From a virus: a stretch of 64,000 nt of DNA. Positions 1 to 64,000 of this stretch are shown piece after piece; the stretch's first letter is position 1, and each line of letters opens with the position of its first letter. Position numbers and translations under genes: made by a program. The notes under the pieces were generated by a model that was not told the origin of the DNA, did no database searches, and saw only the letters and a program-made list of their open reading frames with translations. The stretch spans positions 43,391 through 107,390 of the IMG/VR virus record IMGVR_UViG_3300031703_000001; one strand, given 5' to 3'.

Positions 1-1
1 G

Positions 2-676
2 ATGTCTAAACTTTGGAACTATGAAACAACTAGTGGTGCAGGGGGAAGCAGTCTTCCTTTAAACACCATAATTGAAAATCATGGAAAAGTAATTGTAACT
101 CATAAAATAACTGAAAAGATCAGATACTATGATTTGAATATTGAAACTTCACTTTATGATGAATGGTTGATTACAGGATTGGCATTAAACTTAGCTTATC
201 TAATTGATACAACTGGAGGAGATATTTCAGTTATAGATCCTGAAACCGTATTGCATAGTTCTGCTAATAAGGTAGTTATGGATGAAGAACTTTTAAGTGA
301 TTTATCTAGACAGCTTCAGGCATATGGAGATGATAATAAAGCAATGGCTGCTAAAATGATTCCATGTATTGATTACACTAAAAATTTTCATTTACTATGG
401 AGGTTTGCACAAGATAATGATGGCAATATGTACTCCTTTAATAGGGATAAAGATATTCAATATTGGTTATCAGTATCAAACTTTAATAAATTCACTAGAC
501 TATCTGCACAGGATATGATATTGTGGTTAGAAAAGAAAGAGTATTTGAATGCAGTATCATTTAGATATTTAGAGCCTATAGTTAGAAGAGAAATAAGCAT
601 ACACAACAGAGATCTTTATACATTTAAAGTGGCTGTAAAAAAAGAATACCAACAATATTTAGGTACTAAAACTTAA
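2..676 (+). CDS. hypothetical protein, probably truncated by the window edge; paralog of the downstream ORF
   Basis: Open from the window start; the segment VVMDEELLSDLSRQLQAYGDDNKAMAAKMIPCIDYTKN aligns by eye with AVIDNVEYEGIRKMIVSNDKDNRSLALEMLANCNVDKS in 681..1844. Confidence 0.75.
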   Translation: MSKLWNYETTSGAGGSSLPLNTIIENHGKVIVTHKITEKIRYYDLNIETSLYDEWLITGLALNLAYLIDTTGGDISVIDPETVLHSSANKVVMDEELLSDLSRQLQAYGDDNKAMAAKMIPCIDYTKNFHLLWRFAQDNDGNMYSFNRDKDIQYWLSVSNFNKFTRLSAQDMILWLEKKEYLNAVSFRYLEPIVRREISIHNRDLYTFKVAVKKEYQQYLGTKT

Positions 677-680
677 AACA

Positions 681-1844
681 ATGAAAAAAAGATATCAAGT
701 AAACTGGAACCAATCAGAAGAAAATGTCACAATAGTGAATGGTAAATGTAAATTAAAAGCATCAGCGTTTGATGTTCTATCTGCAGGTACATGGGTTGGG
801 CATAGTAATGATTATGCTATAACAAAAGCAGATAAAGTAAGAATTGGTGTTGATTTTAAAACACCAGATACATTTACAATACAGGATAAAACCATATATA
901 GATTTCCTAAGTTGGATTTACCTAGACAAAAGGTGGATTTACTTAAAGAAAAATACAATGTCAAAGTAATTAGAGACCCAAATAAAGCAGATATTCATGT
1001 AATTTCAGATAAGTTATTTGATAGCATATTTGATTACAATTGGCAAACATCATCAACGTTTCTACACTTCTTTAAGGTATTAAAAAAACTAAAAGAAGAT
1101 GATCACCTAACTGTAGGTGCATTAGAAAAAGTTAAAGATATAATGGAAACTGTTGGTGTAGACTCAATGGTTAAATTAGAAAATAAGTATAGTTATAGAC
1201 ACAACAGTTATTCCAATCCAGATGCAACTTCTATATTTTTAGATATTATAAATGGATTATGGTTAAATGAAGAAGTTAATATGAATAAGGACATCATCAT
1301 TGATGATAAAAATATTCAAGATTTCTTAGACATTAAAAACAGTAGTGCTACAGTTCTTTATGATACTGATGTTATAGGTATTATAGATGGCCAACTTGCT
1401 GTAATTGATAATGTAGAGTATGAAGGTATCCGCAAAATGATAGTTAGTAATGATAAAGACAATAGGTCATTAGCATTAGAAATGCTAGCAAATTGTAATG
1501 TGGATAAATCATATGATGTAGTCTCAAGTATTTTTTACTGGGAATACAACTGGCTAAAAGATACCAATAACTGGAATAGTGTAAATGTTAAAGCATTAAG
1601 AAAAAGACTAAAGGAATACCAAGGTGGACCTTGTACTTCTAATATATATGCTTATAATAAATACATTAATAATTTGGTTAAAGATGATAAATTAACTGAA
1701 TATGCAGTAAATGAAACAAGAAAGAAACTGTATCATGAAGTTTTAGGAAACCTTGTTGGTACTACTGCAGATGTTTTTGAAGTAAAATTTGAGAACTTGG
1801 AATTAAAAGAAAAATTAATACAAAAAATAAAAACAGATGAATAG
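681..1844 (+). CDS. hypothetical protein with a possible BRCT-like N-terminal segment and a helical C-terminal domain
   Basis: 387-aa ORF tightly packed with neighbours; LPRQKVDLLKEKYNVKVIRDPNKADIHVIS resembles the BRCT alpha1-beta2-beta3 pattern. Confidence 0.75.
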   Translation: MKKRYQVNWNQSEENVTIVNGKCKLKASAFDVLSAGTWVGHSNDYAITKADKVRIGVDFKTPDTFTIQDKTIYRFPKLDLPRQKVDLLKEKYNVKVIRDPNKADIHVISDKLFDSIFDYNWQTSSTFLHFFKVLKKLKEDDHLTVGALEKVKDIMETVGVDSMVKLENKYSYRHNSYSNPDATSIFLDIINGLWLNEEVNMNKDIIIDDKNIQDFLDIKNSSATVLYDTDVIGIIDGQLAVIDNVEYEGIRKMIVSNDKDNRSLALEMLANCNVDKSYDVVSSIFYWEYNWLKDTNNWNSVNVKALRKRLKEYQGGPCTSNIYAYNKYINNLVKDDKLTEYAVNETRKKLYHEVLGNLVGTTADVFEVKFENLELKEKLIQKIKTDE

Positions 1845-2823
1845 AGACTTAGAGAAAGAAAGGATATTTTATGCAAAAAAAGGTTTTTGCTTTAGTTACT
1901 CCTCACTAAACAAATTATTATTTTCACCATCCTTATTTTATAAGGAATATATTATGTTTGACCGTGAGGTTAGAACAGACACCCACCTTGTTGAAGGTAA
2001 ACTTGTGCATTGCTTATTGTTTGAACCAGAAAAGGTATTGGAGAAATTCAATCTTGTTCCTGGTAGAGCACCAAGTGATAATATCAAAAAAGTAATGAAA
2101 GATATGTCTCTCTTTACTGATGCAGAATCATTAGCTGATTGTTCAGAACAAGCTCTTGAATCATTAAAAACTTTAAATCTTTTCCAGTCTCTTAAAACAG
2201 ATGAGCAAAGAATTAAAAAAGTTATTACTGAAGATAATGAACCATATTGGAGTTTCTTAAGTAACACTAACGTTGATGTTGTAGATCATGATACTATGAA
2301 TAAATGTTTAGATAAAGTGGAAACACTTAAATCAAACAAAGATGTTATGGATCTGTTTAAACAACAGGAGACAGACTTTGAGTTAGATCCAATTGAAACA
2401 CATGCTGAAAAATATTTGAAGTCTGAAGTATCAGAAAACAATTTTGGTCTTCATGGTTACATTGATTACTATAAAATAGACCATGATAAAATGGAGGTCA
2501 CAATATGTGATCTTAAAACTACTGGTAAAACTATTTCTGATTTCCGTGAGACCATTGACTTTTATAATTATTGGTTGCAAGCAGCCATATATGCTAAATT
2601 AGTTTATGATACTCTTGGAGAAAAGGCTGAAGAATACACAATAGTATTTAAGTTTGTTGTTATTGATAAATACCAACAGGTGTATGTTTTTGATGTTACT
2701 GAAGATACTTTAGCAGGATGGGCTGATGGCCTTGAAGGTGTTATTAAAGTAGCTGCACATCATTATGATGAGAAAAACTATCAATTACCATATGACTTTC
2801 TGGTAGGAAACATTAAGTTATAG
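1837..2823 (+). CDS. PD-(D/E)XK exonuclease, RecE/exonuclease VIII-like (DUF3799-type)
   Basis: FSYSSL, GKLVHCLLFEP, GYID, DLKTT and YWLQAAIY motifs. Confidence 0.85.
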   Translation: MNRDLEKERIFYAKKGFCFSYSSLNKLLFSPSLFYKEYIMFDREVRTDTHLVEGKLVHCLLFEPEKVLEKFNLVPGRAPSDNIKKVMKDMSLFTDAESLADCSEQALESLKTLNLFQSLKTDEQRIKKVITEDNEPYWSFLSNTNVDVVDHDTMNKCLDKVETLKSNKDVMDLFKQQETDFELDPIETHAEKYLKSEVSENNFGLHGYIDYYKIDHDKMEVTICDLKTTGKTISDFRETIDFYNYWLQAAIYAKLVYDTLGEKAEEYTIVFKFVVIDKYQQVYVFDVTEDTLAGWADGLEGVIKVAAHHYDEKNYQLPYDFLVGNIKL

Positions 2824-2824
2824 T

Positions 2825-3403
2825 ATGGACAATGTATATACAGACTATTTCCAAAAGAGTAAGGTTTTTCTTTACCCTCTGTTAAAACTTAAAAAAGGTA
2901 TCACTTATGTTCCTGTGCAAACTTATGTTTGTTGGGAGCATGAGTATGCTATTGAGGATCACAAATTATTATGTGAGTATCATGTTAAGTCTTCAGATAA
3001 GTTTGTAGCATTCTGTAATAAATATTTAAAAAGTAACAAACTCTTTTATAAATACATAGACCTTGGAGAAAACAAGCATCTATTTATATTTGACTTTAAA
3101 CCTTATAAAAATGACTTTAACAGATTTGCACTTGGTAAATTTTCTCAATTCAGTTTAGAATCCAAAATAGTAATATTGGATTTTTTCAATGCTTCAGGAA
3201 ATATGTTAGGTTATATAACATCATTCCTATCTCCAGATAATGCACATGCTGATTATGCTGCTGCTTTTAATGTAGATATAGAAAGTATACAGGAAGTTTA
3301 TGAAGTATGCAGTGTACCAAACTTAAAAAAAGAAACCTTTCAAGATAATAATCATCTATTAGATTGTTTATTAAATAAGAACTCCATATCTTTGGAGAAA
3401 TAA
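2825..3403 (+). CDS. hypothetical phage protein
   Basis: 192-aa ORF starting 1 nt after the previous stop. Confidence 0.75.
   Translation: MDNVYTDYFQKSKVFLYPLLKLKKGITYVPVQTYVCWEHEYAIEDHKLLCEYHVKSSDKFVAFCNKYLKSNKLFYKYIDLGENKHLFIFDFKPYKNDFNRFALGKFSQFSLESKIVILDFFNASGNMLGYITSFLSPDNAHADYAAAFNVDIESIQEVYEVCSVPNLKKETFQDNNHLLDCLLNKNSISLEK
3387..3394 (+). promoter_or_regulatory. Bacteroidota sigmaA -7 element (TATCTTTG)
   Basis: Matches TAnnTTTG; TTG about 20 nt upstream; ends 19 nt before the ATG at 3414. Confidence 0.6.
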
Positions 3404-63565: not shown

Positions 63566-63615
63566 AAATATTTTTTTTACTATAATGTAATGTGATCTTA
63601 CACGCTATACACTTA

Positions 63616-63626
63616 TAATATACAAA
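63616..63626 (-). promoter_or_regulatory. putative late promoter motif TTTGTATATTA
   Basis: 50 nt upstream of the ATG at 63565. Confidence 0.6.
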
Positions 63627-63670
63627 ATTTTTTAAAACCAAACAAGTAATGTCTGATTTTAAAAAATTTT
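63624..63670 (-). terminator. 21-bp AT-rich hairpin
   Basis: Arms 63624-63644 and 63650-63670; both mismatches become G:U pairs in minus-strand RNA. Confidence 0.55.
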
Positions 63671-63692
63671 ATAAAATAGATATGAGGGTTGA

Positions 63693-63959
63693 TTATACTT
63701 TGGTAAGCGTGTCTTTGGTTTTTTCTTGAGGTGAAAGTGTACCATCTTCAAGACTAATATTTACTGCTCCGTACTTTTCTTCCAATTTAACAGTTAACAC
63801 AGTCCACTTTGCTTGCATTTCTGTATGGCTTGTTACTAGTTGATTCTTAACTAATTCAGCATTACCAATATTCAGTAACAAATTATTAATTTCAGATTGA
63901 AGATGTTTAACTTCAGTAAGTTCCGCAACTGTAAGTTTTTTTGATTTTGATTTTGCCAT
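63693..63959 (-). CDS. 88-aa coiled-coil protein
   Basis: Heptad pattern ending LEEKYGAVNISLEDG; TATCTTTA at 63992-63999 upstream. Confidence 0.75.
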   Translation of the reverse strand: MAKSKSKKLTVAELTEVKHLQSEINNLLLNIGNAELVKNQLVTSHTEMQAKWTVLTVKLEEKYGAVNISLEDGTLSPQEKTKDTLTKV

Positions 63960-64000
63960 TACTATAAGGTTTTTAAATTATTTATCTGGTGTAAAGATAA

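Follow-up and report, generated by a model that had tools for sequence, protein, structure and literature searches.

The endonuclease IV of phage T4 (denB) is a nuclease of single-stranded DNA (ssDNA), specific for deoxycytidine and preferring 5'-TCA-3', from which the phage's own DNA is shielded by hydroxymethylcytosine. Restriction-site avoidance in phage genomes has been surveyed by Rusinov et al. 2018 (PMC6286503); the cases are overwhelmingly 4-6 bp palindromes, belong to orthodox Type II systems and are specific to the host strain. In phage T7, all 36 sites of EcoP15I lie in one orientation, so that Type III cleavage fails (PMC3874151). Viruses also encode strand-specific nickases recognising 3-7 bp, including Nt.CviPII with a site of 3 nucleotides (nt), a very frequent chlorovirus nickase whose over-expression in E. 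coli requires the cognate methylase (PMC3592412). Here, these systems are compared with a 64,000-nucleotide stretch of viral DNA, hereafter the window, which comprises bases 43391-107390 of the single 107,390-bp virus contig IMGVR_UViG_3300031703_000001 and has been purged almost completely of the trinucleotide TCG and its reverse complement CGA. A literature search found no description of such a TCG purge.

A three-letter word lost from the genome

The window holds 8 TCG, 2 CGA and no TCGA among 371 CG dinucleotides, and the whole 107-kb genome holds 17 TCG and 7 CGA. By comparison, 610 TCG and 538 CGA are expected in the window from base composition, 125 and 108 under a first-order Markov null, and 200 +/- 12 and 164 +/- 10 (minima of 172 and 136 in 200 shuffles) when synonymous codons are shuffled in a way that preserves the protein and the codon usage of each gene. 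Genome-wide, the same shuffle predicts 338 TCG and 308 CGA, and composition about 990 and 940. A preliminary description, in which the window was read by eye, had listed the ten sites at exactly the coordinates of Table 1 and had seen no TCGA, its estimate of roughly 300 CG being slightly low. Its argument that codon bias is insufficient is borne out by the synonymous-codon shuffle, which rules out codon bias as the cause.

The loss extends through all three codon phases and into non-coding DNA, where 3 TCG/CGA sites remain among 29 CGs. Ser-TCG accounts for 4 of 2273 serine codons and Arg-CGA for none of 1088 arginine codons, while the observed/expected (o/e) counts across codon junctions, marked here by a hyphen, are 6/348 for xxC-GAx, 4/217 for xTC-Gxx, 2/73 for xCG-Axx and 5/55 for xxT-CGx. 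As the preliminary description had also stated, the host-like groEL and nrdAB genes share the depletion, with no site in either; low-GC groEL genes of the host lineage (n = 21) have medians of 21 TCG/CGA sites and 39 CG, against 0 and 13 in the phage gene.

The purge adds to a general CpG deficit of roughly 2-3-fold, with CG at an o/e of 0.22 and TG and CA at 1.26 in the window. The other words containing CG are retained, as had been claimed: ACG/CGT, CCG/CGG and GCG/CGC occur at 1.1-1.9 times the Markov expectation, CCGG (46 against 46 expected) and GATC (185 against 192) are at expectation, and ACGT (0.40) and GCGC (0.50) are low only through the general CpG deficit.

This genome was pooled with 72 dereplicated tail-marker loci of relatives, giving 1.46 Mb in which TCG stands at 0.039 of the composition-based expectation, against 0.28 for ACG, 0.26 for GCG and 0.43 for CCG, and is 7-11 times rarer than the other NCG words. 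The bases at positions -1 and +1 of TCG show no preference beyond background, and TCGA, which carries the word on both strands, falls to 0.005, roughly the product of two independent penalties. Since all TCGN and NCGA tetranucleotides are equally depleted and the flanks are without preference, longer restriction sites are rejected as the cause, and the effect is a genuine trinucleotide effect, as first proposed.

One explanation that must be weighed against these counts is enzyme-driven hypermutation, in which a TCG-preferring ssDNA cytosine deaminase of host or phage would turn TCG into TTG, mostly on the strand exposed in replication, with the genome drifting, and secondarily being selected, away from the word. 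The CpG deficit with its TG/CA excess favours such a process, as do the uracil-DNA glycosylase (UDG) encoded by the phage and a strand asymmetry, described below, that is specific to TCG and independent of transcription; ssDNA deaminases act strand-asymmetrically at replication forks. However, TTG/CAA shows no excess over the dinucleotide expectation (1.03) in the pooled DNA, and no deaminase was detected in the phage genome by family searches. TCA, TCT and TCC stand at 0.99, 1.00 and 1.13 of composition in the pool, where only TCG is lost and the APOBEC-type footprint, a general loss of TC with an excess of TT, is absent. Orthologous positions in relatives carry a mixture of TCA, TCT, TTG, TAG and ACG, and there is no general compositional asymmetry between the strands. 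Where C>T would replace Asp by Asn or Glu by Lys (xxC-GAx), depletion equals that of xTC-Gxx, in which C>T is silent. Because non-synonymous C>T classes are as depleted as synonymous ones, the depletion is selection on the word and not bare deamination. The preliminary description's option of context-specific deamination is thus disfavoured, and a TCG-specific ssDNA deaminase is regarded as rather improbable.

The purifying selection is continuing, in that mutation and gene acquisition feed in sites and selection removes them. The residual sites appear young when compared with aligned relatives: 13 of the 24 in the genome fall within the 27% of it for which the closest complete relative offers no alignment, and the aligned sites are mostly derived, only three being common to that relative and none deeper. 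Within the window (Table 1), the residual TCGs in late genes are derived where alignable, with relatives carrying TTG at 52748, and the CGA at 42113 is likewise derived, with CAT or AAT in relatives; the three TCGs in lineage-specific genes are also present in independent metagenome contigs. In a small polymorphism test, 3 of 40 variants created a TCG or CGA, where 2.2 would be expected; the test is underpowered, and its variants stem from a co-occurring relative. Six of the 17 genomic TCGs, all on the plus strand, cluster where the early block begins, within a 1.3-kb stretch (genome 22251-23579), in and between small genes without counterpart in relatives.

Physical-strand asymmetry of the surviving sites

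Seven complete or near-complete genomes were oriented alike, with the late genes on the minus strand. Residual TCGs on the plus and minus strands number 17 and 7 in this phage (labelled G000; its relatives are labelled G001, G003, G008 and so on), 30 and 6 in G001, 39 and 5 in G003, 98 and 18 in G008, 28 and 0 in G018, 32 and 10 in G019, and 126 and 84 in G017, and the plus-strand excess is individually significant in six of the seven. Gene orientation does not alter the sign of the bias. In G018, 11 sites lie in plus-strand genes and 14 in minus-strand genes, with no minus-strand TCG anywhere; in dereplicated loci (52 centred on PolB and 54 on the tail gene), the ratio is 618:397 in plus genes and 245:122 and 422:184 in minus genes. 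Among the 32 reverse-complement pairs of trinucleotides, only TCG/CGA has a sizeable DNA-strand component (log2 -1.6; next 0.37), all other pairs tracking the sense strand, and GC and AT skews track transcription. The word is most strictly prohibited on the late-gene sense strand, along the whole genome, and this polarity is independent of transcription. This asymmetry is a new finding. The avoidance had been described as strand-symmetric, which holds as a first approximation in that both strands are depleted, but the survivors are significantly biased to one physical strand throughout the clade.

Such an asymmetry implies a process with polarity along the whole genome, for instance packaging that tracks a strand, or replication that is unidirectional or of the rolling-circle type and exposes one strand. 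It also implies that the agent either nicks one strand or recognises the word on just one strand, and it is not predicted by a simple Type II-like cutter of double strands. The same evidence bears on avoidance of a protospacer adjacent motif (PAM); on this view a CRISPR-Cas subtype widespread in the hosts would use TCG as its PAM, and each loss would remove one protospacer. The cost would be additive per site, and PAMs are 2-5 nt long and conserved within a subtype; yet DNA-targeting CRISPR systems strike both strands equally, which leaves the asymmetry unexplained, and PAM depletion in phages, reportedly seen in one study, is modest in extent. PAM avoidance is accordingly considered very improbable. 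Primase sites and promoter or terminator signals were also considered and set aside, as the bias is independent of gene orientation and the residual sites are neither conserved nor evenly spaced.

Distribution in the clade and candidate enzymes

Approximately 240 IMG/VR loci were retrieved with the tail protein, PolB and a small HNH endonuclease as probes. TCG/CGA is the most depleted trinucleotide in almost all of them, and likewise in nearly all of roughly 150 IMG/VR relatives, and no relative avoids another word. The median Markov ratio rises with distance, from about 0.07-0.2 at 75-94% PolB identity to 0.36 at 65-69% and 0.6 at 55-59%, while the whole-genome fraction of the composition expectation is 0.012 in this phage, 0.014 in G018, 0.021 in G019 and 0.13 in G017, the least purged. 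A syntenic sister lineage (G032, G033 and G035; PolB about 50%) is essentially unpurged, with ratios of 0.6-0.9, and no other 3-5-mer is purged in it. Cellulophaga phage phi14:2 (0.86) and Leptolyngbya phage Lbo-JY46 (0.83) are both unpurged. The preliminary description had raised the comparison with host chromosomes, and the depletion is absent from those of the host lineage: 80 groEL-flanking chromosomal loci of Flavobacteriaceae and other bacteria, which stand in for the actual host, have ratios of 0.65-1.36. As a separate observation, phi14:2 has a single CCGG against about 15 expected, an ordinary palindromic restriction-avoidance signal that contrasts with the TCG purge.

These data bear on a host defence that recognises TCG, which could be a nickase or nuclease that cuts very frequently and has a cognate methylation, an enzyme of Type III character requiring inversely oriented sites, a DarT-type ssDNA ADP-ribosyltransferase or a modification-dependent nuclease. 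Depletion in the phage and not in host-lineage chromosomes is the classical pattern of restriction avoidance (PMC6286503), the graded purge among close relatives fits differing host ranges, the one-orientation residue of G018 recalls T7 and EcoP15I (PMC3874151), and DarT enzymes read 3-4-nt words on ssDNA (PMC7003065). Of 301 host-family genomes sampled, only 11 carried the DarT family PF14487, which neither supports nor refutes DarT as the agent. On the other hand, a lineage- or host-specific palindrome of 4-6 bp, as expected of an avoided site, was not found; the same asymmetric trinucleotide is avoided in nearly all relatives, across a clade with PolB down to about 58% identity. In addition, even sites in the majority orientation are more than 10-fold rarer than expected; a Type III mechanism would not call for this. 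A host defence of this kind is possible and is put forward tentatively.

Among the proteins of the phage itself, the conserved HNH protein is a better, though putative, candidate for the agent than the two modules named in the preliminary description. The product, encoded in the early gene block, has an HNH core preceded by an N-terminal CxxC...CxxC zinc ribbon. The core residues D89, H91, H92, C76, C83, C110, C113 and H114, comprising the catalytic His and a Cys4/His zinc site, are invariant. An AlphaFold (AF2) model built on a 35-sequence alignment reached a pLDDT of 92, whereas one from a 7-sequence alignment was unusable (pLDDT 51). In structural comparisons the HNH endonuclease of phage GVE2, 5h0m, ranks first (Z 7.6 over 82 residues), ahead of the IscB and Cas5-HNH domains, EcoKMcrA (McrA) and the Gme HNH nickase; a sequence-level search of the PDB returned nothing, and Pfam HNH models gave no match. 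Among phages, HNH enzymes with a zinc ribbon nick one specific strand at specific sites of 3-7 bp (PMC3592412).

The family has 5106 representatives (50%-identity clusters from metagenomes) and no Pfam assignment. All 12 complete relatives carry the gene, either in a long form that includes the zinc ribbon or in a short one of about 89 amino acids, whereas phi14:2 and Lbo-JY46 lack it, and in its tree the unpurged loci form one separate clade, the syntenic sister lineage. The gene does not lie beside the terminase, being about 10 kb from the presumed TerL gene and on the other strand. Relatives of family member P0122 belong to the same phage clade, including a 245-kb contig with two copies of the major capsid protein gene, and no IMG/VR relative of the distant member P0253 was found. 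In this 245-kb contig, IMG/VR G030 (245,646 bp, rated 100% complete), the two capsid genes are 78-79% identical to that of this phage, and the contig probably joins two related genomes of ~120 kb. In G003, three tRNA genes (Arg-TCT, Leu-TAA and Met-CAT; oriented coordinates 50082-50324) lie directly downstream of the HNH gene, and all three have TTCAA rather than TTCGA T-loops and thus contain no TCG or CGA.

If the HNH enzyme, early and conserved, nicked 5'-TCG-3' in host DNA, the phage, which has no methyltransferase, would be spared by lacking the word, and the asymmetry would follow if nicks on the strand tracked in packaging or replication were more harmful. The HNH assignment, fold and invariant residues are consistent with such self-immunity, as are the presence of the gene in every complete relative, its absence from the two unpurged phages and the separation of unpurged loci in its tree. 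There is also a precedent for strand-specific nicking at 3-7 bp and for a frequent viral nickase in Nt.CviPII (PMC3592412). The motif is constant over the deep clade, and six frames of the genome gave no match to the DNA methyltransferase families PF00145, PF01555 or PF02086, a host enzyme being possible. Small phage HNH enzymes, however, usually serve packaging or homing, and the TCG specificity is putative here. This account, including its explanation of the asymmetry, is seen as doubtful.

The preliminary description had suggested a phage nuclease or DNA-modifying enzyme, or a host defence, as the selective agent. DNA-level avoidance of a word is the right class of explanation, but both modules that it named fail. 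The RecB/Cas4-like PD-(D/E)XK domain of the ejection protein has intact motifs in this phage (GNDVD, AGTAD, DLKTSK and QVNLY, the QxxxY motif), gives a Pfam PDDEXK_1 match that is below the cut-off (E = 0.0039), and occurs in all 12 complete relatives but not in phi14:2. As the agent it would need intact catalysis in every purged relative, yet G009, G018 and G019 have lost the motif-III Lys and QxxxY; G018 and G019 are as purged genome-wide as this phage, the 22-kb tail-marker locus of G009 is purged (Markov ratio 0.18), and G017 has intact motifs yet is the least purged. Equal purging of relatives without an active nuclease is the result by which the preliminary description had said its proposal would fail, and the loss of catalytic motifs in three relatives shows the nuclease activity to be dispensable. 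The ADP-ribosyltransferase (ART)-like module of a virion protein is unique to this phage, with no homologue in any of six equally purged relatives and no family match. A separate PD-(D/E)XK exonuclease (Table 1) was rejected as the purge agent since it forms an ordinary recombination module with a Sak4-like ATPase and RusA encoded upstream of the window, and no homologue of T4 endonuclease IV was found in this phage.

The contig is assigned a crAss-type architecture from its gene content, as a marine crAss-like phage. Family matches identify the Crass_capsid major capsid protein, the crAss muzzle protein and the tail ring protein; a giant protein of 4688 amino acids occupies the place of the virion RNA polymerase of crAss-like phages, and there are further giant virion proteins. 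Genes for replication and metabolism comprise PolB, a DnaB-like helicase, primase, UDG, ThyX, ribonucleotide reductase (RNR), PhoH, MazG and the host-like GroEL. Its PolB shares 33% identity with the phi14:2 enzyme and its capsid protein 28% with the Lbo-JY46 one, and no cultured close relative was found. Because its GroEL has 70-76% amino acid identity to Flavobacteriaceae GroEL, a flavobacterial host is suggested. When 20 kb of phage DNA was compared with 401 host-family genomes in search of spacers and of the host, nothing resembling a spacer emerged, and the matches were all short, imperfect and AT-rich. The phage sequence recurs in at least 9 marine metagenome runs, and 17 such runs contain the phage, the matches being contigs. 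These contigs stack 5-50-fold deeper over window 8000-10000, at groEL, with many joints and loose ends; the pile-up reflects cross-matching bacterial groEL and not raised phage copy number. A 739-amino-acid protein sits where the large terminase might be guessed and has no tblastn match in 50,697 phage records; it gives a weak fn3 match only, so that it was rejected as a terminase and taken as a tail-associated protein, and it served as the tail marker. By position and gene order, TerL is likely a gene of 729 codons, which has no family match, and the portal one of 914.

Table 1. Coordinates of the purge, its residual sites and the genes discussed (window numbering unless marked as genome; aa, amino acids)
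Feature	Coordinates	Strand	Remark
TCG/CGA purge	1..64000	both	10 sites against 360-1150 expected
Residual TCG in PolB gene	5813..5815	+	derived; relatives carry TAG, TAA or CAA
Residual TCGs at 10494, 11010, 13653	10494..13655	+	lineage-specific genes, not alignable to relatives
Residual TCGs at 37632, 39478, 52748, 61786	37632..61788	+	within late genes encoded on - strand
CGA at 42113 and 45569	42113..45571		+ strand; sole CGAs in window; TCG on - strand
Small zinc-ribbon HNH endonuclease, 134 aa	genome 26405-26809	+	16.6 kb upstream of window; PHROG 740, E = 8e-10
RecB/Cas4-like PD-(D/E)XK domain in 1976-aa ejection protein	22882..23634	-	motifs
ART-like module in 1299-aa virion protein	49780..50600	-	no Pfam match
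PDDEXK_1 PD-(D/E)XK exonuclease	1837..2823	+	separate from ejection-protein domain
Sak4-like ATPase	genome 37027-37710
RusA	genome 39464-39841
Host-derived groEL	8435..10066	+	0 TCG/CGA, 13 CG
739-aa tail-associated protein	61346-63565	-	tail marker
Capsid gene	genome 7944-9563
Likely portal gene, 914 aa	genome 11061-13805		by position
Likely TerL gene, 729 aa	genome 13827-16016		by position

Origin of the purge and its place among described systems

The explanation favoured here is that TCG is under strong, continuing purifying selection, most likely as the recognition word of a strand-reading, DNA-acting enzyme, which we infer as the cause. Such an enzyme, either a nickase or nuclease or one that modifies or deaminates bases, would read three nucleotides on one strand. 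Every TCG site would carry its own cost, and sites arising by mutation or gene acquisition would then be removed. The cost would be higher on the late-gene sense strand if it arose in a process of fixed polarity, namely unidirectional or rolling-circle replication, or packaging.

Several points weigh against this explanation or its two main forms. No TCG-specific enzyme has been identified in phage or host, and a mutational CpG component also exists, visible in the TG/CA excess. For an HNH agent, orthologues with 48-58% identity occur in the unpurged sister lineage, lineages whose HNH proteins are about 80% identical differ 10-30-fold in residual site density, and the 17-126 residual sites per genome would remain targets. 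For a host agent, the specificities of restriction-modification (R-M) systems normally vary by strain, yet the motif is constant over a deep clade, and we know of no R-M system with a 3-bp specificity.

Three origins of the enzyme can be distinguished. A host defence of fixed short specificity, probably flavobacterial, is a real but tentative prospect, and is suggested by the graded purge among relatives. A phage-encoded enzyme, from which the genome is protected by lacking the word rather than by methylation and for which HNH is the best candidate, is also possible, if somewhat doubtful, and is suggested by the constancy of the word over a deep clade together with the viral precedent for very frequent nickases. 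An enzymatic ssDNA deaminase specific for TCG seems improbable. Host and phage origins are given roughly equal weight, with enzymatic deamination and PAM avoidance as lesser rivals.

Enzymes that target DNA classically leave a footprint of avoided motifs, and following it has repeatedly revealed the enzyme. The present footprint is unusual in that it concerns a word of 3 nt (about 2000 sites removed from a coding-dense genome of 107 kb), is constant over a deep and abundant marine clade and is strand-polar. Together, these features predict an undescribed TCG-specific activity that acts on, or senses, single strands. It is conceivable, although unlikely, that the clade uses word-free genomes as a methylation-free self-immunity while a frequent strand-reading nickase, HNH or another clade-specific enzyme, shreds host DNA at TCG, the word having been lost from the phages' own genomes of 110 kb most strictly on the strand whose soundness counts in replication or packaging; if true, this would constitute a new viral principle of self/non-self discrimination, by the absence of a trinucleotide. 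Should the activity belong to a host, marine Bacteroidota would possess a new type of defence directed at short words. A TCG-specific nickase or nuclease would serve as a reagent, strand polarity gives a handle on the polarity of replication and packaging in crAss-like phages, and the purged genome provides a natural test substrate for re-inserted TCG arrays in either orientation.

Compared with described systems, the purge resembles restriction-site avoidance in that a short word is nearly gone from a non-temperate double-stranded DNA phage and not from host-lineage chromosomes, in all frames and in non-coding DNA; it differs in that the word is an asymmetric trinucleotide, constant over a deep clade and avoided more strictly on one physical strand. 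As with T7 and EcoP15I, an asymmetric word survives almost only in one orientation in G018, G003 and G001, but the split is 17:7 in this genome and 126:84 in G017. Unlike in T7, where all genes share one orientation, the bias here is unrelated to the direction of the genes, and even the tolerated orientation shows a 10-60-fold depletion; moreover, Type III sites are 5-6 bp long. The low CG with excess TG/CA is like CpG decay of the vertebrate type, but decay by CpG methylation and deamination does not account for the extreme TCG context, a phage without a methyltransferase match or the equal loss of non-synonymous sites. The HNH fold is shared with N.phiGamma and GVE2 HNHE (Xu and Gupta, PMC3592412), with an N-terminal zinc ribbon in this phage. 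Described HNH nickases adjoin the terminase or cos, whereas the HNH gene here lies in the early region, and no methylase was found in the phage. In the self-immunity proposed above, there would be a likeness to T4 endonuclease IV, in that a three-nucleotide word would be read on ssDNA by a phage enzyme that discriminates self from non-self. T4 protects itself by base substitution, whereas the phage described here would do so by purging the word.

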